Source of the DNA: a virus
Lineage: Duplodnaviria > Caudoviricetes
Length of the DNA: 27,652 nucleotides
IMG/VR virus record: IMGVR_UViG_3300020043_005149
Coordinates: 1 to 27,652 of that record
Reading direction: 5' to 3' (one strand)
Shown: piece after piece, positions 709 to 27,571 of the stretch
Layout of the letters: each line of letters starts with the position of its first letter
Numbering within the stretch: position 1 is the stretch's first letter
Position numbers and translations under genes: made by a program
Notes under the pieces: model-generated
The model's database searches: none
What the model was told of the DNA's origin: nothing
The model's input: only the letters and a program-made list of their open reading frames with translations

Positions 709-1850
709 ACTATTTATCGGTATGCAGTGGAATTGAAGCGGCAACAGTTGCTTGGCATCCATTAGGTTGGAATCCTGTTGGCTTTTCTGAAATTGATTCT
801 TTTCCGAGCCAAGTATTGAAACATCATTATCCAAATGTCCCAAACCATGGTGACATGACAAAATTTAAGGAGTGGCAAATTGAATCAAATGTCGATGTTT
901 TCGTTGGAGGAACACCATGCCAGTCTTTCTCAGTCGCAGGACTCAGAAAAGGATTGGATGACCCTCGTGGTAACCTCATGCTTACCTATCTTGCCATTGC
1001 TAAACAATATCGCCCCCGCTGGTTGGTCTGGGAGAATGTCCCTGGCGTTTTGTCCTCCGCTGACGGACGGGACTTTGGTAGCTTCCTCGGAGGGTTGGCA
1101 CTCTGCGGGTATGGGTTCGCATACAGGGTGCTTGACGCTCAATACTTCGGAGTGGCCCAAAGACGCAAACGTGTGTTCGTTGTCGGATATCTTGGAAACT
1201 GGCGACCTGCCGCAGCGGTTCTTTTTGAGCGAGAGAGCTTGCAAGGGAATTCTCCACCGAGCAGACAAAAGGGGGAAGGAGCTACCTCCCGCTCTTCTTC
1301 AAGCGTTGACGAAAGTGGCATCCAGCTCACTGTAGGCACTTTATGTGCTGACACACACCCTGGCAGTTACAGTGGACAAGATGCCTACACTGGCAGATTA
1401 GTGCCAACAGGTGTGCCAGATGTTATGGCTACTTTACTGTCCTCTACGGCAGGAATTTCTAGACCTGGCAATGCCGTTACAGAGCATGAAACATACATCC
1501 CAATGACAAGTCAGGTTTCCGCTTCTTCAGAGATGGAATCAATGGCATTTGAAAATAATCGTAGAGATGGTGTTCGTTTGTATGGGGACATCACAAACAC
1601 TTTGCAAGCATTTGCAGGGACGGGTGGCGGGAATACTCCAATGGTTCAAACAACAATGGCAGTTCGCAGATTGACTCCTGTTGAGTGCGAAAGACTTCAA
1701 GGGTTTCCAGACCATTACACCGATATCAAACCAAAGGGAAAGCAAACCCCTGATGGTCCAAGATACAAAGCATTAGGAAATAGCATGGCAGTTCCAGTTA
1801 TGAACTGGATCGGACAAAAAATACAAAAAGTTGAGGATTTAATTAAATGA
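705..1850 (+). CDS. DNA (cytosine-5)-methyltransferase
   Basis: Motif I variant VCSGIEA, motif IV GGTPCQSFS, VI ENVPG, VIII QRRKRVF, IX RRLTPVECERLQGFP and X YKALGNS. Confidence 0.95.
   Translation: MNYLSVCSGIEAATVAWHPLGWNPVGFSEIDSFPSQVLKHHYPNVPNHGDMTKFKEWQIESNVDVFVGGTPCQSFSVAGLRKGLDDPRGNLMLTYLAIAKQYRPRWLVWENVPGVLSSADGRDFGSFLGGLALCGYGFAYRVLDAQYFGVAQRRKRVFVVGYLGNWRPAAAVLFERESLQGNSPPSRQKGEGATSRSSSSVDESGIQLTVGTLCADTHPGSYSGQDAYTGRLVPTGVPDVMATLLSSTAGISRPGNAVTEHETYIPMTSQVSASSEMESMAFENNRRDGVRLYGDITNTLQAFAGTGGGNTPMVQTTMAVRRLTPVECERLQGFPDHYTDIKPKGKQTPDGPRYKALGNSMAVPVMNWIGQKIQKVEDLIK
880..1335 (+). CDS. Nested alternative-frame ORF (151 aa) resembling the beta polypeptide of split C5-MTases (M.EcoHK31I type)
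   Basis: TAAGGAG at 866-872 sits 7 nt before TTG 880. The ORF is open for 151 codons in the +1 frame and contains SLSDILETGDLPQRFFLSERACKGILHRADKRGKELP. Confidence 0.7.
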   Translation: MNQMSMFSLEEHHASLSQSQDSEKDWMTLVVTSCLPILPLLNNIAPAGWSGRMSLAFCPPLTDGTLVASSEGWHSAGMGSHTGCLTLNTSEWPKDANVCSLSDILETGDLPQRFFLSERACKGILHRADKRGKELPPALLQALTKVASSSL

Positions 1851-2275
1851 CATTTATGCTGACCTACATGGTTGAAGGCAACCCAATCGGGAAAGGCCGA
1901 CCAAAATTTGCTAGGAGGGGGAACTTTGTTTCTACCTACACCCCTACCAAAACTAGAGATTACGAAACTGTAATCAAAGAAGCTGCCCAAAAAGCCATGG
2001 GAAGCAATGCAGTTTTGGAAACGCCTGTAACAGTTGCAATCTACATCACAGTACCAATCCCTGCCTCGTACTCCAAAAAACGCACTGAAGCCTGTTTAAA
2101 GGATATTGAAAGGCCAATTAAGAAGCCCGACATCGACAACATTGCCAAATGCTTCTTAGATGCTATGAATGAGATTGTTTACAAAGACGATACCCAAGTG
2201 CTGACGCTCCATGTGACCAAGGTCTATGGCACTGTTGGCATGGTGGAGGTCATGGTCAGGGAAGATTTGGACTAA
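1847..2275 (+). CDS. rusA: RusA-family Holliday junction resolvase
   Basis: N-terminal GNPIGKGRPKF, plus KPDIDNIAK..LDAMN..VYKDDTQV carrying the catalytic Asp residues. Confidence 0.9.
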   Translation: MTFMLTYMVEGNPIGKGRPKFARRGNFVSTYTPTKTRDYETVIKEAAQKAMGSNAVLETPVTVAIYITVPIPASYSKKRTEACLKDIERPIKKPDIDNIAKCFLDAMNEIVYKDDTQVLTLHVTKVYGTVGMVEVMVREDLD

Positions 2276-18407: not shown

Positions 18408-20465
18408 TTATGCCTTTAATTGCGCTTTTAACGCCTCAACTTCTGTTGATAATTCTTGAATTGCTTTAGTTAAAACAGCAATATAAGACGGGTAATGAAT
18501 GGTTTTAAAGCCAATTTCATCACCAACTTTCCAATCTGGCTCTTCATAAACTAATGAAGAACCACTTTCAATAATATTTTCAACTTCATCAGCAATAAAT
18601 CCATATCCTTTTTGGTGCTTTGGATCAGCTTTAAGCTTATATGAGACAGGACGCAATTGTTTAACAAAAGCCAAACCTAAATCACAATTAGTAATTTCTT
18701 CTTTTAAACGAATATCAGATGGGCTTGTTGTTGTTACTTCAATAGTAACTGTATTGCCTGTACCGGATGTTGCGACATAAGCACCAACAATACCTGTAGA
18801 TGCAGAACCAAGAATATTTAAACCAGATCCACCAGCATTGGCAGTTCCTGAATTGGTTGGAAAAATCCTAGCCCAAGATGAGGCGGCATAACCACCCATT
18901 GCATCTACTGTAGTCCACTGGCCATCATTTCTAAGAAATGTTGTTGTTGAACCAGTTGGTTGGGCAATTGTGTACGCACCCCAAGCAAATGTTCCTTGAT
19001 TAATTTGAAACGCTCTGCTTGCTCCAGAGGCAGCATTGCAAACAAGTCCAACACCAGAAGTAAGGGTTGAAGCAAAATAACCGCCAATATTATTGCTAGA
19101 ACCAACAACTCCAATTCCTGTGCTACCAGGCACACTTGATGGTGTTGTGCCATATCCAATAACACCAACATTAATAATGCTTCCACTAGAAGTAGCAGTA
19201 CCTAATACACCTGAACGCACATTTCCTAATGCTGCGCTTGTTGTTCCATCACCAAAAGTGGAATAGTCAATAAAGTAAAGACTGTCGTAAACAGGAATAG
19301 TTGTAGAAGTAGGGTTGTCACCCTTAAACACTGCATCACCATTAGTAGTAATGTCAGCCCTAAAAACGCCATTATTAAAGTAGACGTTACCTGTTGTTCT
19401 GCTTATGTAATAACCTGCCGTGCCATAAGTAGCAGGTGTTCCATATGTTGGCGGTGTTGAGCCATTCCAGTTATCAGATCTGATGTCTTGAAAAATAGAG
19501 GCGGCAGTAGGTGTTCCCCAAGCAGTTTGCCCAGAAGGAACACCATCTAATGTTGCTGCACTAGAGTTATAGCGACCAAAAGAATACCAAAGAACATCTC
19601 CAACAGAAACAGTAGGAGCAGTCAAAGACCATCCAGATGGGGCGGTTGGACCAGTTGTATTAGAAGGTGTTGCAGGAGCAGCAGAAGATTGACTTTGCGC
19701 CCTGTAAGCAGTTAACGCACTAATACCATTTCCGCCAGTTGATCCCGTTGCTCCATTAGATGAAAACGCATAAATTGGATAAGACACATTTGTCCAATCC
19801 AAAGTAGAAGTTACTGTATTGGCATTAACAACCAAAGGAATAGTAATAGCCCACAAAAAACTACCTGGCGTTGTGTTTGTTATTGGCTCTGTTGTCCACC
19901 CGCTAGGGGCCGTATAAGCCCCTGTAGCCCATGTATATGTTGATGTGGTGCTAGGACGGGTTGGTGGTGTAGAAGAGGCCGTCCAAATGTAAATAGATGG
20001 TGCAGCAGTGTTATATGCCGTAGTTGTGGTCACCACATCTAAATCAATTGAAGCACCTGTTTCTTGCAAATAAGTGGAATTAGGAGCAGTTGTTCCTACA
20101 AAGAAATTAATCTGCCGACCGCCATTTGTTTGATAAAACAAAAATTTAGTAGTGCCAAATCCACCTGCAGCTAAAAACCAAATGTAGTCAGCAGGGTTTG
20201 TTGACTCTACAGAACTGTTTGTATTTCTCAATCCATAGTACAAACGATTTGTTGGACTGTTACTAAAATTTAAAGTACCATCAAAACTATCAGCATATTT
20301 GACAGCAATATACTGATATAAATAAGCAATGATCACACCCGATGGACCACTAATCTGACCATTATTAGGATCGGCAGATAAGTTAGGTCCAAAGTTAGCC
20401 AATAAATAATTAATGGCCTCGGAAATCTCCGATTGGGATGGATCACTATTTAGTGCGAATGGCAT
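18408..20465 (-). CDS. Tail fibre/spike with C-terminal intramolecular chaperone (Peptidase_S74)
   Basis: S/T/G-rich body; SDIRLKEEI...LRPVSY...YGFIADEV...LTKAIQELSTEVEALK. Confidence 0.85.
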   Translation of the reverse strand: MPFALNSDPSQSEISEAINYLLANFGPNLSADPNNGQISGPSGVIIAYLYQYIAVKYADSFDGTLNFSNSPTNRLYYGLRNTNSSVESTNPADYIWFLAAGGFGTTKFLFYQTNGGRQINFFVGTTAPNSTYLQETGASIDLDVVTTTTAYNTAAPSIYIWTASSTPPTRPSTTSTYTWATGAYTAPSGWTTEPITNTTPGSFLWAITIPLVVNANTVTSTLDWTNVSYPIYAFSSNGATGSTGGNGISALTAYRAQSQSSAAPATPSNTTGPTAPSGWSLTAPTVSVGDVLWYSFGRYNSSAATLDGVPSGQTAWGTPTAASIFQDIRSDNWNGSTPPTYGTPATYGTAGYYISRTTGNVYFNNGVFRADITTNGDAVFKGDNPTSTTIPVYDSLYFIDYSTFGDGTTSAALGNVRSGVLGTATSSGSIINVGVIGYGTTPSSVPGSTGIGVVGSSNNIGGYFASTLTSGVGLVCNAASGASRAFQINQGTFAWGAYTIAQPTGSTTTFLRNDGQWTTVDAMGGYAASSWARIFPTNSGTANAGGSGLNILGSASTGIVGAYVATSGTGNTVTIEVTTTSPSDIRLKEEITNCDLGLAFVKQLRPVSYKLKADPKHQKGYGFIADEVENIIESGSSLVYEEPDWKVGDEIGFKTIHYPSYIAVLTKAIQELSTEVEALKAQLKA

Positions 20466-22084
20466 TAGAAAGCATCCTCAGTCACAGTTGCTTGCATATT
20501 TAATGCGCTCATTTTCCATGTGTTAGTGGCATCGTTTGAGCCAAATTTAACTGCCACAGTACGAAATGTATTTTGCTGAGTAGGAACCCAAGGTGTATCA
20601 GTATCAATTGTGGTTACACCTGTCTCACCATAAACAGAAGTTTGAGCGGTCGAATTAGCACCGCCCACAGTAATATTGATTGCACCCGTACCTGCTATTT
20701 CAGGCAAAACTCGGTGAATATAGACTTTTGAAGAATAAGGAACAGGACCATTGGCAGTCTGCAAAGCAATGTTAGTACGCTCAAACTCAGAATCAATGGC
20801 AGAACCTACAAATGAGTTACCAATGGCTGTCTCTACCAACCTAGAGTTATCAATACCTCCACGGGCATATACAACGGCTCTAGAAGACAAATTGTAGTAA
20901 TCAGGTGATGAGTCTACCCAACGAGGTCCTTCAGTGCCCATACAAGCGTTTTGGACATCTTTAGGAGCATTCCAAACCTGTAAGTCATATCTCCAAGACA
21001 ACATTTTGTTACACCATCCTGTGGAGGTCAAATCAGGATAGTAAATTTCAATCTGAGACTTTTGGGTGTTGTTAACCATAAAAATCCGATTTCCATAAAC
21101 AGGACTTAGGTTAGCAAAGAAGTAATTCTTAACTTTTTGGTTTCCCAAAGAAGTAAATTCAGATCCATTAAACACCCAAATATCACGAGCATCTACGCCA
21201 TAAACATTGGCATCAGTATTTGACCAACAATTATTGTTAATTAATCCTCGACCTTGGTTTAATAATCGAACACCAAATATTGGAGCGGTGGTATTTTGAT
21301 AAGAAATAGGTGAAAAAACTACTGTATCCCAATAAGAACACACATAAAAATTGCTTCCAAGGAAAAATCCATCAATCAATGGACCACGAACAGGCACTTC
21401 TTGCTCGTTAGCCACGTTAGAAAGAGTAGGTTCCCATGTAACTGGATAGCCTTGATTGGCAAAAGCTTGCGACCACCTGACAGTTGTTGGGTAGTTATAA
21501 GTCGTACCACCAATAACTTTGGTTAAATTTCCCGAAATAAGGATGTTTCCCACATTGGGGGAGCAGAAATTACGAACAAATGCTGCTCTTGTAGACGTTA
21601 CGCCAACATCATAATTCCATGATGCATCAGGAGTTACTGTAATTTCATTGCCTGTTGGCAAGAAATACATTGGATTTTGAATGGTGTCATTAATAAAAAA
21701 GACATTTCCAACCCAAGAAGTGGTGATATTTATATCTTCTGTATATCCGGCAATAAAGGCAGAAGGATTAGCCCCCACGCCTGGCGTTATGTTAGATATA
21801 CCCGTGGCAGTAATCATAAACCATTTACCTTGGTTAGATGAATTACGGGTTGCTACGATATACACCCAAGAAGTTTCTGATCTAAACCCACCTTCCATAA
21901 AGATGGGCATATCAGTAATGGTAGAAGCAATCTGAATCTCACCAAAGATCTTCTTAATGCAACGCACATCAGCTTCAATGTTCTTCCCGCTGTTGTACTC
22001 ATTTGGGCCTAAAGCGTTACTAGGCACATCAGGAGTAAAACTCATTGATGTAAATGGAGTACGGAGGCGGGAATAATCGCTCAT
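20465..22084 (-). CDS. Tail hub / packaged-DNA stabilization protein (P22 gp10-like)
   Basis: 539 aa and beta-propeller-like (TTVRWSQA, LSWRYDLQVW); lies upstream of the fibre and ejection genes. Confidence 0.7.
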   Translation of the reverse strand: MSDYSRLRTPFTSMSFTPDVPSNALGPNEYNSGKNIEADVRCIKKIFGEIQIASTITDMPIFMEGGFRSETSWVYIVATRNSSNQGKWFMITATGISNITPGVGANPSAFIAGYTEDINITTSWVGNVFFINDTIQNPMYFLPTGNEITVTPDASWNYDVGVTSTRAAFVRNFCSPNVGNILISGNLTKVIGGTTYNYPTTVRWSQAFANQGYPVTWEPTLSNVANEQEVPVRGPLIDGFFLGSNFYVCSYWDTVVFSPISYQNTTAPIFGVRLLNQGRGLINNNCWSNTDANVYGVDARDIWVFNGSEFTSLGNQKVKNYFFANLSPVYGNRIFMVNNTQKSQIEIYYPDLTSTGWCNKMLSWRYDLQVWNAPKDVQNACMGTEGPRWVDSSPDYYNLSSRAVVYARGGIDNSRLVETAIGNSFVGSAIDSEFERTNIALQTANGPVPYSSKVYIHRVLPEIAGTGAINITVGGANSTAQTSVYGETGVTTIDTDTPWVPTQQNTFRTVAVKFGSNDATNTWKMSALNMQATVTEDAF

Positions 22085-23136
22085 GTCACTTCTTCCATCT
22101 GCGAAAGATTGGTCAATAGACGGGTGTCTGTAGGGTTGAATTCTAAAGCTTTCTTACAGAATTCGATAGCCTGTTCTTTCAATCCAAGCCTCCAAGCTGC
22201 AATACTTGCATAATCGTATGGTTTTTCAGTCCAAACGCTTGGGTCCATTGTGTAAACGGCCTGTTTATCTTTAATATTTAAAGCTGAAAGAGCAGCACCA
22301 TAACTCTCAGGCCACATACTTAACCTGTAAGTTACAGTTGCCAATTCACACCATGGCTCACGGGTATCAGGGGCTTCAGCACAAGCTAATCTGTACCATT
22401 TCAAACCCTCGTGAATCAAACCCAATTCTTCATGGCATTTACCCAATAACCGCATGGCATAACACCGCTCATTAGGCCAAGTAGCTTCAGGCATGGCTAG
22501 ATATCGATTTAATGCCGTTATAGCGTCTTGCCAACGGGAATAGAAGGTTAGCTCCCGTGCATGGTAAAAAGCGTTTCTAGGGCAGTGTGGATCTTCTTTG
22601 ATAGCCAATTCAAGCAATGGCATATATTGGCCACGAGACTTGGTTGGGTCAGGATGGTGGCTGACCAAAAGCATATCTGTATGGGCATAGATTTCATTAG
22701 TTCTGCCATCAGGACGGGGATATTCATGGACAGGGTGATGCCAATGATATCCATGGCGGTGGTGGATTTTCTCGTAAAAAAACGATATTCCAGAACCCCA
22801 ATCAAATTTGTATCTCAAGCGAGTTGTTTCAGCAGTCCAAACCCGCTCAATCTCTTCCCGCCAACCTTCTTCCATAACTTCATCAAGATCTAATGAAATA
22901 CAGACATCAAAATCACGGGGAATCATTGCAAGGGCAGCATCCCTAGCTTTATCAAACCGCCACGGGCTGATGCAAATATCATGCACTTTTGCGCCACATT
23001 CCAATGCTAGTTTTACAGTGTCATCAGTAGAGCCTGTATCTGCAATCAGAATCAGGTCTGCATCTTTAGCTGAATCACAAAAACGCTGAACAAATTGCTC
23101 TTCGTTTTTGGATATGGCGTATACGGCTATTTTCAT
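22081..23136 (-). CDS. Family 2 glycosyltransferase with C-terminal TPR repeats
   Basis: AISKNEE, ADTGSTDDT, FDKARD, SLDLDE (DxD) and PVHEYP; TPR-like helices. Confidence 0.9.
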   Translation of the reverse strand: MKIAVYAISKNEEQFVQRFCDSAKDADLILIADTGSTDDTVKLALECGAKVHDICISPWRFDKARDAALAMIPRDFDVCISLDLDEVMEEGWREEIERVWTAETTRLRYKFDWGSGISFFYEKIHHRHGYHWHHPVHEYPRPDGRTNEIYAHTDMLLVSHHPDPTKSRGQYMPLLELAIKEDPHCPRNAFYHARELTFYSRWQDAITALNRYLAMPEATWPNERCYAMRLLGKCHEELGLIHEGLKWYRLACAEAPDTREPWCELATVTYRLSMWPESYGAALSALNIKDKQAVYTMDPSVWTEKPYDYASIAAWRLGLKEQAIEFCKKALEFNPTDTRLLTNLSQMEEVT

Positions 23137-23165
23137 TGCTATTCCTATATTATTAAATTGTTATT

Positions 23166-23954
23166 TCAACCCACGCCCATTTGTTTGCGTATTTTGGTTG
23201 CTGAAATAGCGTGTGTAGCATCATCAAAAGACTCCTGCTCAATCTTGTAGCCCACATCCCTGCCGTATGTAATATTCACCACATTAGGCACAAGCTGGAT
23301 CTCATACTGACCTTGGTATAGTGGATCAAGGTCACGTTTGATAAAGTCTTTAACCTGATTGGCAGCAAAAGGGTTTGAGCCGTTCCATCCTTGACAATCT
23401 CTGATCTGGATGACTACCTGACCAGTTTTGGCCAAGGCTCTTTCAAACAACTTGCGGTGGCCTTCATGCCAAGGTTGCCATCTGCCAAGCATTTGGACTG
23501 TCTCTTTCTGCCAATCAAAGACAGGGCGTTTCCGGTTGTCCAAAATGCCAGCAGCAATGAACTCACCCCACTTTTCAGCGTTTTGCTCTGTGATTCTGAA
23601 ATCGTACTGCTCTGGCGCAACAAACACCTTGTTGGTGTCTTCAAAACGGCCTTGGTTGATAGTGTCAACCCAAACAGTCCAATCTGCCTTGAAGTTGTTA
23701 CGCATTTCAACCAGAGGGGCAACAAAGTCGCAGATCACATAATCCACATCGTAACTGTCAGCCAAATCACGCATTCTTAGGCTTTGGCGAATACGGCCTT
23801 CATGGGAAAAGTCCCAATCGTTGTATTTCTTACGCACATCATCAGCATTCAGCCACATGACTGTTTTGCGCTCGGCTTGCAAGTGATCAAGAATGTGTTG
23901 TGCAAGGTAAGTTTTACCAGCACCAGGCAAGCCCATAATCAATATGCGTTTCAT
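23166..23954 (-). CDS. Adenylylsulfate-kinase-like P-loop domain fused to an HxGH nucleotidyltransferase domain
   Basis: GLPGAGKT, LNADDVR, DFSHEGRIRQ and FVAP; then GRWQPWHEGH...ISATKIR. Confidence 0.85.
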   Translation of the reverse strand: MKRILIMGLPGAGKTYLAQHILDHLQAERKTVMWLNADDVRKKYNDWDFSHEGRIRQSLRMRDLADSYDVDYVICDFVAPLVEMRNNFKADWTVWVDTINQGRFEDTNKVFVAPEQYDFRITEQNAEKWGEFIAAGILDNRKRPVFDWQKETVQMLGRWQPWHEGHRKLFERALAKTGQVVIQIRDCQGWNGSNPFAANQVKDFIKRDLDPLYQGQYEIQLVPNVVNITYGRDVGYKIEQESFDDATHAISATKIRKQMGVG

Positions 23955-24772
23955 CCTTTAACCTTATAAAGTTGTTTCATTGCAAACTCTAGTGCGGGTG
24001 TGCGCCAGAACTCTTTACCAGAATACTTTTCCCAAACTGATTTAGGCAAGATAGAGGGACGTTCTTGCCATGTAACTTCTTTTCTGACTGTGTGCAGACT
24101 TTTCATGTTCAAGGCTTTGTCATACACCTCGTTGTCATACTCAACATTCTTGTAATCGTGTTCGTAATAAGGCTTGCCAATAAACCCATAAATCTCACGC
24201 ATAACGCTCTCAGGCTTTTTGCACAAAGATTCATACTCAACCAACATAATCATGTCAGGGTTTAACAGTAAGCCTTCTTCTAAGAAGTAGTAGGGCTTGA
24301 CCACCTGACCCTCTTTTTTAACATCCATCAAAGCATCGCATCTTGTGGTGACTGTTTGCCTAGCTTCATCATCCGTCAGGCTTGCACCATACAAAGAGTT
24401 TTTGGAAGCAATGCGCTCAAAGCTATCAAGAATCCAAGGCAAATCACGCACACAACAGACAATCTTAGTCTGTGGGTAAAGTTCCTTGAGCAAGGATGTT
24501 TTGGCTGTCCAACCCCTGCTTGTATCAAATACAGTATTGGGACTGACAGATTCATAGTAGGCATTGAACAAAGAGCGTAGGATGCTTTTGCGTCTGTCTT
24601 CATCTATCAAGTGGTTACTCTCGCTACCTGTAATGACATTGATTGTTGATGCAACCAACCCCAATACTGGCGAGGAAATATCTGCATAGAATTCTGGATT
24701 CTGACGCAAGATAGCCGAGAGCAGGGTTGAGCCTGACCTTGGCAAACCAGAGATGAAGAAAAACTCTTTCAT
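23951..24772 (-). CDS. PAPS-dependent sulfotransferase
   Basis: 5'-PSB loop FISGLPRSGSTLL, 3'-PB motif VRDLPWILDS and VEYESLCKKP. ATG 24772 is preferred over 24793. Confidence 0.9.
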   Translation of the reverse strand: MKEFFFISGLPRSGSTLLSAILRQNPEFYADISSPVLGLVASTINVITGSESNHLIDEDRRKSILRSLFNAYYESVSPNTVFDTSRGWTAKTSLLKELYPQTKIVCCVRDLPWILDSFERIASKNSLYGASLTDDEARQTVTTRCDALMDVKKEGQVVKPYYFLEEGLLLNPDMIMLVEYESLCKKPESVMREIYGFIGKPYYEHDYKNVEYDNEVYDKALNMKSLHTVRKEVTWQERPSILPKSVWEKYSGKEFWRTPALEFAMKQLYKVKG

Positions 24773-24774
24773 TC

Positions 24775-25200
24775 TTAAGCCTGTGGAATCCAATTGACTG
24801 TGGCTTCATCCCATTGATAACGCACGTTGCCGCCATTCATAATGGCATCTACAGGTCTTGGTACAGGCGCACTCCAAGTCATTGTGTCTGGGTAACCAAT
24901 CCAAGATGGGTAAGGTCTACGGGCCAAATGTTCAGCGGCTTTAGCGGCGTTGTATTCTTCTTCAGTCAAAACCTGCAACACGCCCGCAATAGTAGTGTCG
25001 GCATCATCATCACAAGTGCCATAGTATTTAGGCGCACGAAGGTATGTGCCTGTTGAGTCTGTGCTAACAGGCCATGTTGAACTGTCATGCCATAAATGAG
25101 CCCAGCCTTTAATTGCTGGCATTGATGGGCCTGTGCGTTGTGGTTCAACTGTGCAAGGTATTTTTGTAACTGCGTCAACTTCGGTAATGCAAATGTACAT
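24775..25200 (-). CDS. Tail-associated hypothetical protein
   Basis: TAAGGAG SD; C-terminal PYPSW...TW.APVP.P...Y.WDE...W motif. Confidence 0.7.
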   Translation of the reverse strand: MYICITEVDAVTKIPCTVEPQRTGPSMPAIKGWAHLWHDSSTWPVSTDSTGTYLRAPKYYGTCDDDADTTIAGVLQVLTEEEYNAAKAAEHLARRPYPSWIGYPDTMTWSAPVPRPVDAIMNGGNVRYQWDEATVNWIPQA

Positions 25201-25220: not shown

Positions 25221-25970
25221 TTAAACTGCTACTCTGCGAACGGCGCGAACATAACGATAAGAAGATTGTATTTTATTGGCATAAGTTTGTTGTCCTGTTG
25301 AAAATGATTGCATGGAGCCCGTGTAAGGAGCGCCAATTCCTTGCGTACTTGACCAATAAAATGCGCTTGAAAATGATTCTGAATTTCCTGTTTGGAAAAT
25401 GGCCGCAGATGTTTGGGCGGGTGTTCCGGATGTGTAACTACTAGCCCTTGCTGGAACAGCATTAGCATTTATTCCTGACGCTGTAGAATTACCAGCAGTT
25501 GTTGGTTTTAAATTGTAATAACAAACTTCTAATTCATTTAAAGCTGGCATATACCAATCTGTGAAACCGCCCACATTAACCGCTTCACAAAATTGTGCCG
25601 CCGGATATAAGGCACTATTCATTGTTGCACTATTTGCAGGGCCGTTAATTACAGAAGTTGGATCGCCTGTAGTACCCGTTGTTTTCCATTGAACCGGTGT
25701 TGTTTGACCAGAAGAACGAGGCGCAATCACCAAGTTGTAATCAGCCACACTGTTTCCTGCCGTTGAAATTTGTCCAGCATAATAGCCGCCTTGGTAGGCT
25801 TGACCAATCACTAAGGGAGCAGAATTTCCCGCAGTAGGCCACAGACCTTGCTTCTTAAACTGCATGGCTTGGTCAAGTGTCCATACACCTTTTGCCGTGC
25901 TTGTGTCATACGGCCCAGATGGAAGTGGTGGACTCTTTGTGATAAACCCGCCTGGATATTTTTGGCTCAT
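25221..25970 (-). CDS. DUF1566/Lcl (C-type-lectin-fold) virion protein, paralog 3
   Basis: GFTDWYMPALNEL, YWSSTQ and VRAVRR. Confidence 0.85.
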   Translation of the reverse strand: MSQKYPGGFITKSPPLPSGPYDTSTAKGVWTLDQAMQFKKQGLWPTAGNSAPLVIGQAYQGGYYAGQISTAGNSVADYNLVIAPRSSGQTTPVQWKTTGTTGDPTSVINGPANSATMNSALYPAAQFCEAVNVGGFTDWYMPALNELEVCYYNLKPTTAGNSTASGINANAVPARASSYTSGTPAQTSAAIFQTGNSESFSSAFYWSSTQGIGAPYTGSMQSFSTGQQTYANKIQSSYRYVRAVRRVAV

Positions 25971-25979
25971 GGTTGTTCC

Positions 25980-26654
25980 TTAGACAGGGACTCTGCGGAT
26001 AGCACGAACACGAAGAGAATAGGTTTTACCTGTATCATTTTGAAAACCATTAGAAAATGTTTGATACTCAGCGGCAAAAGGTTTTGCACCGCCAACCTGA
26101 GTGCTAGACCAATATTGAGGCGTTGAAAATGCTTCAGAACCTCCAGTTTGAAAAATAGTTACAGAGGTTTGAACAGGATCTCCCGATGTGTAATTACTTG
26201 CTCTTGCAGGTACAGCGTTGGGGTTTATTCCAGAAGATGTGTTGTTTGCACCTGTTGTTGGCTTCAAGTTGTAATAGCAAACTTCTAATTCGTTTTTAGC
26301 TGGCATATACCAATCGCTAAATCCACCAACAGTTAAATTGTCGCAAAATTGCCCACAAGGGTGTGCTGCCGCACCAGCCGCAATCATTGCTGCCGTGTTT
26401 GCTGGGCCATTAATAACTGAATCTGTTCCAGTTGTTAAATCAGAGGAAGTTTTCCATGAATTTTGAGTTTGACCAGATGACAGAGGTGCAACAACTAAAT
26501 AATGCGTTGCAACACTGCTTACACCAATTTGACCAGCGTAATACCCGCCACCATAAGCCTGACCAATAGTCGTTGGAGGAGGGCTAGGCCAAGTGCCAGC
26601 CGCTATAGCTTGCATCTGAGCCTGTAAAGTAAAAACACCTGAGTAACTTGGCAT
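25980..26654 (-). CDS. DUF1566/Lcl virion protein, paralog 2
   Basis: GFSDWYMPAKNEL, YWSSTQ and VRAIRR. Confidence 0.85.
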   Translation of the reverse strand: MPSYSGVFTLQAQMQAIAAGTWPSPPPTTIGQAYGGGYYAGQIGVSSVATHYLVVAPLSSGQTQNSWKTSSDLTTGTDSVINGPANTAAMIAAGAAAHPCGQFCDNLTVGGFSDWYMPAKNELEVCYYNLKPTTGANNTSSGINPNAVPARASNYTSGDPVQTSVTIFQTGGSEAFSTPQYWSSTQVGGAKPFAAEYQTFSNGFQNDTGKTYSLRVRAIRRVPV

Positions 26655-26662
26655 ATATTTCC

Positions 26663-27571
26663 TTAGACTGCTACTCTGCGAACTGCTCGGACACGATAGG
26701 AACTTACTTTAAAATAGGCATACTGTTGGCCGTTAATAAAGTACTGCCTCCATGCAGTCGTTGCAGAATTTTCTGTACTAGACCAGTAAGGGGGAGAGGT
26801 CGCAAAGTCTTCTGCACCTGTGCTTTGAAAATCAGTAGCAGAAGTTTGTGCTGGTGTTCCAGCTGTGTAGTTAGATGCTCTTGCAGGGACTGCATTTGCA
26901 TTTATGCCAGATGATGTACTGTTGCTTGCTGTTGTAGGTTTTAAGTTGTAGTAACACACTTCTAACTCGTTCTTGGCTGGCATGTACCAGTCTGTAAACC
27001 CACCAATAGTTAAGCCTTCACAGAATTGCGCTGCGGGGTGGGTTACATCATTCATCGCTGCGCTGTTAGCTGGCCCGTCAATCACTGATGAAGTGCCAGC
27101 AGTTGATGTGTTTACTATTTTCCATTGCAACGTGCTTTGAGCAGATGCTACAGGGCCAACAACTAAATTGTAGTCAGCTACGCTGTTACCCGCAGTAGAG
27201 ATTTGGCCAGCAAAGAATCCACCGCCAAAAGCCCCGCCAATAGCAGGCAATGTTGTTACAGAGTTACTTGCCGCACTTAAAGCACTAGGCCCATAACTGT
27301 TTGTCGCAAAAACTTTAAATGTGTAAGCTGTGCCGCCAGATAAGCCGCTAACAGTAACGGGGGAAGATGCCGCAGTGCCTGTAAACCCGCCTGGACTTGA
27401 AACTGCTGTGTATGACGTAATTGCAGAACCACCAATGTCAGAGGGCGCAGTAAAAGCTACAGATGCGGAACTTGCACCTGATAACGTAGCCGTACCAATG
27501 GTAGGCGCATTAGGGTTCTTTAGCGGGTTAAAAAATGCGGAGATAAACCCAGCAGCGTAACGCATGGACAT
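26663..27571 (-). CDS. Fibronectin type III + DUF1566/Lcl virion protein, paralog 1
   Basis: FN3 segment APTIGTAT...VAFTAP..IGGSAITSY...VSGL..GTAYTFKVFATN; then DWYMPAKNEL, YWSSTE and VRAVRR. Confidence 0.87.
   Translation of the reverse strand: MSMRYAAGFISAFFNPLKNPNAPTIGTATLSGASSASVAFTAPSDIGGSAITSYTAVSSPGGFTGTAASSPVTVSGLSGGTAYTFKVFATNSYGPSALSAASNSVTTLPAIGGAFGGGFFAGQISTAGNSVADYNLVVGPVASAQSTLQWKIVNTSTAGTSSVIDGPANSAAMNDVTHPAAQFCEGLTIGGFTDWYMPAKNELEVCYYNLKPTTASNSTSSGINANAVPARASNYTAGTPAQTSATDFQSTGAEDFATSPPYWSSTENSATTAWRQYFINGQQYAYFKVSSYRVRAVRRVAV

Follow-up and report, generated by a model that had tools for sequence, protein, structure and literature searches.

Does the phage DNA cytosine methyltransferase gene described here encode one protein or two and, if two, what does the second contribute to an enzyme whose main-frame chain already holds all ten conserved motifs? 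The gene is located in the window, by which we mean the whole stretch of 27,652 nucleotides that was analyzed, a linear record of a Caudoviricetes virus (IMG/VR IMGVR_UViG_3300020043_005149) that is ~58% complete. We call the main-frame protein alpha and the product of an open reading frame (ORF) nested in the +1 frame beta (Table 1). The beta ORF starts 175 nt downstream of the alpha start, which places it in the +1 frame, and lies entirely within the alpha ORF, from 12 codons before PCQ (motif IV) to ~50 codons beyond motif VIII. These coordinates agree with the original prediction, made from the sequence alone, of a 151-codon +1 ORF crossing motifs IV to VIII of the methyltransferase, with TAAGGAG 7 nt before its TTG.

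Table 1. Features of the methyltransferase locus; positions are counted from the first nucleotide of the window.
Feature	Position	Strand	Basis
Alpha, C5 DNA cytosine methyltransferase, 381 aa	705..1850	+	PF00145, E 1e-55; TIGR00675 over cut-off
Shine-Dalgarno (SD) TAAGGAG of beta, within alpha codons F-K-E	866..872	+	7-nt spacer to TTG 880
Nested beta gene, 151 aa, TTG start, TAG stop	880..1335	+	ORF; phrog_16143, E 6.5e-12
Alpha motif IV, PCQ (catalytic Cys72), within the overlap	915..923	+	sequence
Alpha motif VIII, QRRKRVFVV; 3' end shared with the beginning of the beta element	1158..1184	+	sequence
Beta residues 101-126, L.DILE...[KR][YF].LS element	1180..1257	+	HMM and pattern comparison
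Beta C-terminal helix pair, residues 118-148	1231..1323	+	codon-difference analysis; pLDDT 87-93 over residues 121-150
Motif IX, main frame, aa 321-335	1665..1709	+	sequence; on beta in EcoHK31I
Motif X, main frame, aa 354-362	1764..1790	+	sequence
RusA-like resolvase, immediately 3' of alpha	1847..2275	+	profile match

Alpha has motifs I to VIII, then a variable region, then motifs IX and X; the positions come from the sequence, and the numbers I to X follow the established C5-methyltransferase scheme. The catalytic PC, ENV and Q.R.R residues, together with motifs IX and X, place alpha among the C5 methyltransferases, and P71 and C72 were invariant in 98 aligned sequences. A structural model of alpha had an M.HhaI-like fold, aligning with M.HhaI over 226 residues (Z 24.2, rmsd 2.5). 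Residues 194-306 of this model were of low confidence, which may reflect an absent partner or just a variable region with a poor alignment; we give it no weight as evidence.

The alpha gene is set in a replication and recombination module, with a primosomal-type ORF and a 70-aa ORF on one side and the RusA-like gene on the other. Within 496-2275 of the window, an ORF (496-708), the methyltransferase gene and the RusA-like gene are linked by ATGA stop/start overlaps, and the alpha start has no clear SD, in contrast to the nested beta start. No restriction enzyme was recognized beside alpha, where the neighbors in this ~58% complete record are the 70-aa ORF, which has no known function, and RusA. 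Farther along, the window encodes a tail fiber with a Peptidase_S74 chaperone domain (18408-20465). A minus-strand cluster beside the virion genes (22081-24793) consists of a glycosyltransferase-TPR protein, an APS-kinase-like/cytidylyltransferase protein and a sulfotransferase, which suggests that components of the virion or the host receive sulfated glycans. Upstream of the structural genes is a tandem set of three genes with Lcl C-terminal domains, one of them also with fn3 (25221-27571, minus strand).

Beta itself matched no Pfam or NCBIfam family, and profile searches of beta against PDB sequences returned nothing significant. No sigma-70 promoter was found for it, and the RNA fold at its start was not unusual (z 0.0). 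AlphaFold, run on beta alone, gave a model of low confidence (mean pLDDT 58.8, pTM 0.30) except over the helix pair at residues 118-148; a fold search with this low-confidence model reached a best Z of 4.3, with no methyltransferase among the 50 matches listed.

An open frame of this length is hard to obtain by chance under the alpha protein. Of 20,000 redraws of the synonymous codons over codons 59-210, 0.14% left the +1 frame open when the gene's own codon usage was applied, and none of 20,000 did so with the family's usage outside the overlap. Among 80 viral loci fetched by the main-frame protein only, 79 had a stop-free +1 stretch of at least 152 codons. Interruption of the +1 frame in close homologs, which the original prediction had named as speaking against a nested gene, was thus looked for and seen in a single locus, L029, where a stop falls inside beta while the alpha frame is open. 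At that locus (L029:1501-3312) the alpha ORF is 603 aa long, the premature stop in beta is a TAA, and a 214-codon +2-frame ORF with zinc-finger/HNH-like motifs overlaps the stretch of alpha that separates motif IX from motif X; it may be an inserted mobile endonuclease.

Selection was measured on 81 sequences, of which 56 were left after dereplication at 90%. In these 56 non-redundant genes, the overlap held one +1 stop where 366.6 were expected, and the controls matched expectation (153 versus 158 at the N-terminus, 157 versus 165.6 at the C-terminus, and 333 versus 314 in the +2 frame). Four-fold third-position identity was 0.54-0.89 within the overlap and 0.29-0.30 outside it. Stop avoidance and suppressed synonymous variation in the +1 frame, the two marks by which the original prediction proposed to recognize a nested gene, were therefore both found, with synonymous sites frozen only in the overlap. 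Single-base codon differences, scored in the 53 of 56 genes that aligned without gaps, showed which frame is constrained where. Over motif VIII, 83% were synonymous for alpha; over alpha codons 176-200, 80% were synonymous in beta and only 16% in alpha. Downstream of motif VIII, conservation was 0.64-0.77 for beta and 0.25-0.57 for alpha. Selection thus shifts from alpha at motif VIII to beta downstream of it, and beta dominates conservation over the helix pair.

The translation start is conserved as well. The best beta start lay 11 to 13 codons before PCQ in 51 of the 56 genes, 45 of which had an SD match of at least 5 nt, and the alpha codons that spell the SD were favored across the 56 relatives (Lys AAG 41 versus AAA 3; Glu GAG 44 versus GAA 5). 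The raw count of SD sequences (47/56 versus 42/1015 in the control) is biased, since the best start was chosen per gene, and we therefore rest SD conservation on its fixed position and on codon choice.

These observations bear on the reading that the ORF is an untranslated shadow of main-frame conservation or of a constraint at the RNA or DNA level. Overlapping frames share bases, so that likeness between betas is partly forced, and the RNA sequencing runs gave only small shares of matching words (at most 0.12). Such a shadow would nevertheless have to account for the one observed stop, in a stretch where one-chain relatives have 2-15 +1 stops, for a beta that is better conserved than alpha past motif VIII, and for changes that are synonymous specifically in the +1 frame; we regard it as barely credible. 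That beta is a real gene under selection is confirmed.

What beta might do is suggested by its closest characterized relative. In the available text of PMC2836561, the beta chain of M.EcoHK31I is encoded wholly in another frame of the alpha gene and bears motif IX; when the EcoHK31I alpha gene had its beta starts silently removed, it gave no protection, and beta supplied in trans restored protection. The truncations of that study extend to beta residue 70, according to its supplementary legends, and so into the L.DILE-type element described below, although motif IX could by itself account for the need that EcoHK31I has of beta.

Using one PMC2836561 primer, we found an E. coli locus (L086) that we treat as EcoHK31I-like because both ends of its 309-aa and 176-aa ORFs agree with the published primers (one internal primer was two bases off). 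Residues 63-148 of beta were 37% identical to residues 27-111 of the L086 beta over 86 residues (E 2e-12, HH probability 97.7), in the same +1 frame. The comparison upheld the likeness on which the prediction had leaned, namely that the segment W..[SA]GM...NT.E.P.....C[ST]LS.[IV]LET matches the EcoHK31I beta. Part of this beta-beta likeness is forced by shared bases, and the downstream helix region is beta-driven. By sequence comparison, then, beta is homologous to the M.EcoHK31I-type beta chain. A pattern search found no viral relatives of the EcoHK31I-like beta.

The nested arrangement is widespread. Beta matched 266 GenBank phage records, 538 plasmid records and, among sequences clustered at 50% identity, 5,341 clusters, of which 3,565 matched at E 1e-10 or better; for scale, alpha matched 1,388 phage records at E 1e-10. 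Relatives ranging from freshwater phages to coliphage P1 keep the nested frame intact, and Caulobacter phage DMCA, Bcep22, Omega gp127 and P1 dmt hold copies of beta that are not annotated. When prokaryote-genome loci were fetched with beta as the query, it was nested in the +1 frame of a catalytic ORF in all 80. Motifs IX and X were both in alpha in 67 of these, IX only in 1, and both on a separate ORF in 4; neither lay within the fetched DNA in 8, and IX was on beta in none. Motif IX in the main frame is thus the common layout and EcoHK31I the minority. The prediction had placed motifs IX and X in the main frame, as they are, and had called this the notable difference from EcoHK31I; the difference stands, but the arrangement is the majority one and not peculiar to this phage.

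Variants of the layout were also observed. Three-part forms, with motifs I to VIII on alpha, a nested beta, and IX and X on a separate downstream ORF, occur in L003 (Omega gp127/gp128), L075, L097, L109, L139 and L161. In the alphas of L004, L005 and L171 (P1-like, Bcep22 and CcrBL9), extra sequence inserted between motifs VI and VIII also lengthens beta while keeping its frame. In the available text of PMC3404938, M.AquI and M.EcoHK31I are the only two-chain exceptions named, and that of PMC3711429, on conserved frame transitions, does not mention the nested-beta case. Literature searches, which covered few subscription journals, turned up no description of the element or of how widespread this layout is.

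The placement of the element differs between dual-coded and one-chain enzymes. The one-chain enzymes of phage H2, Bcp1 and a Klebsiella phage have L.[DE].LE...KY.L in frame after motif VIII. In dual-coded genes a like segment is in the +1 frame, directly over the end of motif VIII, and it is absent from alpha. A set of loci fetched with M.H2I (77 loci, of which 73 were parsed, giving 60 distinct genes) was sorted by the plain pattern. The segment was in frame in 25 genes, all with a closed +1 frame, and in the +1 frame in 27, all open; it was in both frames in none and in neither in 8. An HMM built from 65 beta segments only, with a match defined as at least 8 bits, hit the main frame in 26 of 29 closed genes of the H2 set and in none of the 31 open ones. 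Across all sets it hit the main frame of 0 of 323 open-+1 genes, and of 2 of 6 named closed genes. M.H2I scored 31 bits (0 of 5000 shuffles scored as high), Bcp1 was likewise at 0/5000 and the Klebsiella phage enzyme at 10/5000; E. coli Dcm matched weakly (21/5000), at the expected position, and was missed by a profile of close betas alone. The in-frame and +1 placements of the element are mutually exclusive. The proposal that an L.DILE element following motif VIII, missing from the main frame but in frame in one-chain enzymes, is carried by beta is thereby borne out.

In the opposite direction, an HMM built from 25 monomer elements found its best match on the window's beta at residues 101-126, yet at 0.7 bits (11/5000 shuffles). 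It matched MM1-type betas strongly (78/78) and close viral betas weakly (8/79 at 8 bits), and the beta of phage MM1 shared 14 of 29 residues with the M.H2I element. At the level of sequence, the direct match between beta and the monomer element is therefore weak and the strong link runs via MM1-type betas.

Some dual-coded enzymes seem to do without the element or to use a divergent form. In the Dorothea/Leyra/Wachhund group, which is dual-coded, the element was in neither frame (in frame in 0/74). Members of this group (L173, Leyra; L176, Wachhund; L179, Dorothea; L339-L418) have a +1 chain with repeated LPTP/WPTP motifs instead of L.DILE. Their +1 frame was open from motif IV to VIII in 52 of 77 parsed loci, and motifs IX and X were on alpha, on beta or split, by member.

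If beta served a purpose unconnected with alpha, such as the binding of a factor from host or phage, its likeness to the element would be convergence. The weak direct match to monomer elements, residues 1-70, which have no assigned role, and the low confidence of the isolated beta model are all compatible with this. We nevertheless find it very improbable in view of the homology to the EcoHK31I beta, a proven subunit, of the nesting of beta in a methyltransferase gene in every one of the 80 loci, and of the residues shared between the MM1 beta and M.H2I.

An accessory or regulatory chain, which binds alpha and influences stability, processivity or timing while alpha is active alone, has somewhat more in its favor. 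Activity without beta is conceivable, since alpha has all ten motifs, and its model aligns with M.HhaI over 226 residues; L029 has lost the integrity of beta, and dual-coded relatives without the element exist. The absence of the element from the main frame of all 323 open-+1 genes and its presence in 26 of 29 closed genes of the H2 set is, however, the pattern of a structural part, and loss of beta is rare (1 of 80 alpha-picked viral loci, 0 of 78 parsed MM1-type loci). An accessory role is accordingly one that we judge unlikely.

The protein of the conserved +1 gene carries the segment that one-chain enzymes have after motif VIII, and we consider it likely that the two proteins together form one enzyme, in which the segment is predicted to be supplied in trans by the small chain. 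Ribosomes would begin beta at TTG 880, independently of alpha, on the mRNA that the two share. Beta residues ~100-148 would take the place that the proximal small-domain segment has in monomeric enzymes and so complete the DNA-binding domain, and alpha would supply SAM binding, the catalytic Cys, the target-recognition region and motifs IX and X. The resulting alpha-beta heterodimer would be needed for methylation and would methylate phage DNA as an orphan enzyme, probably shielding it against host restriction; we propose this role by analogy with other orphan phage methyltransferases and because no restriction gene was recognized next to alpha.

The +1 segment could instead be joined to alpha in cis by programmed ribosomal frameshifting, with no separate protein. 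Motif IX follows beta in 65 of 120 long database matches, as a joined product would have it. The element overlaps the end of motif VIII, however, so that one chain cannot hold both, and the conserved SD and start lie ~100 codons upstream, from where the whole +1 frame is stop-free and constrained. None of the 80 DNA loci retrieved by means of a protein of this kind showed the fused form, and EcoHK31I functions as two separately encoded chains, according to the available text of PMC2836561. We think frameshifting highly unlikely.

As for origin, it is plausible that a deletion in the linker that follows motif VIII shifted the frame and so moved the element, but the intermediate that this predicts, with beta fused to motifs IX and X, was met among database proteins and not in DNA loci. 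An ancestor in which beta was fused to the target-recognition domain (TRD) and motifs IX and X was considered and rejected: 52 of the 120 long database proteins have this form, but none of the 80 DNA loci, fetched with one of the fused-type database proteins, has IX or X on beta. Indel errors, or rare mutants, may explain the fused database proteins. The Dorothea group was the only one with a true split of this kind, and its +1 chain is without the element. A quick tree of 105 catalytic domains had 6 label changes and an unresolved backbone, and its "closed" labels for the Dorothea group are partly an effect of how the +1 stretch to be scored was delimited.

More broadly, we lean towards the view that two chains are obligatory in thousands of clusters of phage and prophage C5 methyltransferases, those of Streptococcus phages, P1 Dmt and mycobacteriophage Omega included, and that in these enzymes the element has moved to the +1 frame over the catalytic motifs. 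The element, and not motif IX, would then be the conserved reason for beta, EcoHK31I would be a derived oddity, and most of the annotated genes would be half-enzymes that are dead if codon-optimized. The literature, as far as its available text goes, treats EcoHK31I and AquI as rare exceptions and explains the EcoHK31I beta by motif IX, whereas the nested chain described here is mostly unannotated and IX is mostly in the main frame. If beta is a required subunit, its functional core has to be reassigned. The arrangement would also be an unusually widespread and long same-strand overlap across the active-site motifs of an enzyme, and a rare case of a structural element traceable from in-frame to overlapping-frame coding; recoded synthetic genes for such enzymes would lose a subunit. 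Nested alpha and beta chains are already annotated in MM1, and what is new here is the test of complementarity between element placement in these genes and in one-chain enzymes.

In Streptococcus phage MM1, orf13 and orf14 (DQ113772.1) are annotated as the alpha and beta subunits of a C5 methyltransferase. The layout is as here, with a +1 nested beta (141 aa) without motif IX and an alpha with motifs I to X, and the two betas are 34% identical (E 2e-14); the MM1 beta ends straight after the element, without the last helix of the beta described here. The MM1 chains are known from annotation alone, and we found no paper testing the pair. The one-chain H2/Bcp1 type and E. coli Dcm share the catalytic fold and motif order of alpha and carry the element, but have it in frame, ~25-60 residues past motif VIII, under a +1 frame full of stops. 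Coliphage P1 Dmt, the C5 domain of which falls in the same supported clade as alpha, is fused to a Dam domain and, according to RefSeq, "perhaps" methylates C5 cytosine. Its gene (NC_005856.1; L499:711-1199; L004) contains an unannotated 162-codon +1 ORF with the beta element, in which an internal ATG near position 727 is preceded by GGAG at a distance of 7 nt.

Two enzymes offer the model of a C5 methyltransferase in two chains. M.AquI is naturally two-chain, as is proposed here (available text of PMC3404938); compared by description, its alpha has motifs I to VIII and its small chain the distal variable region with motifs IX and X. The beta described here has neither IX nor X and so does not follow the M.AquI type of split. 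M.EcoHK31I (E. coli, YGGCCR) has, as here, a beta wholly inside alpha in the +1 frame, and the EcoHK31I-like alpha of L086 is 39% identical to our alpha over 209 residues. Its beta starts later than ours, which begins before motif IV and ends after the helix pair. It also has a C-terminal extension bearing the motif IX that its alpha is missing; in the L086 beta this extension matches residues 318-341 of our alpha, that is, motif IX. EcoHK31I is paired with a restriction enzyme (a NotI-family gene in L086), whereas none adjoins the gene here. By analogy, the pair described here would resemble M.EcoHK31I in its working, but it differs in the defining placement of motif IX, which it keeps in the main frame.
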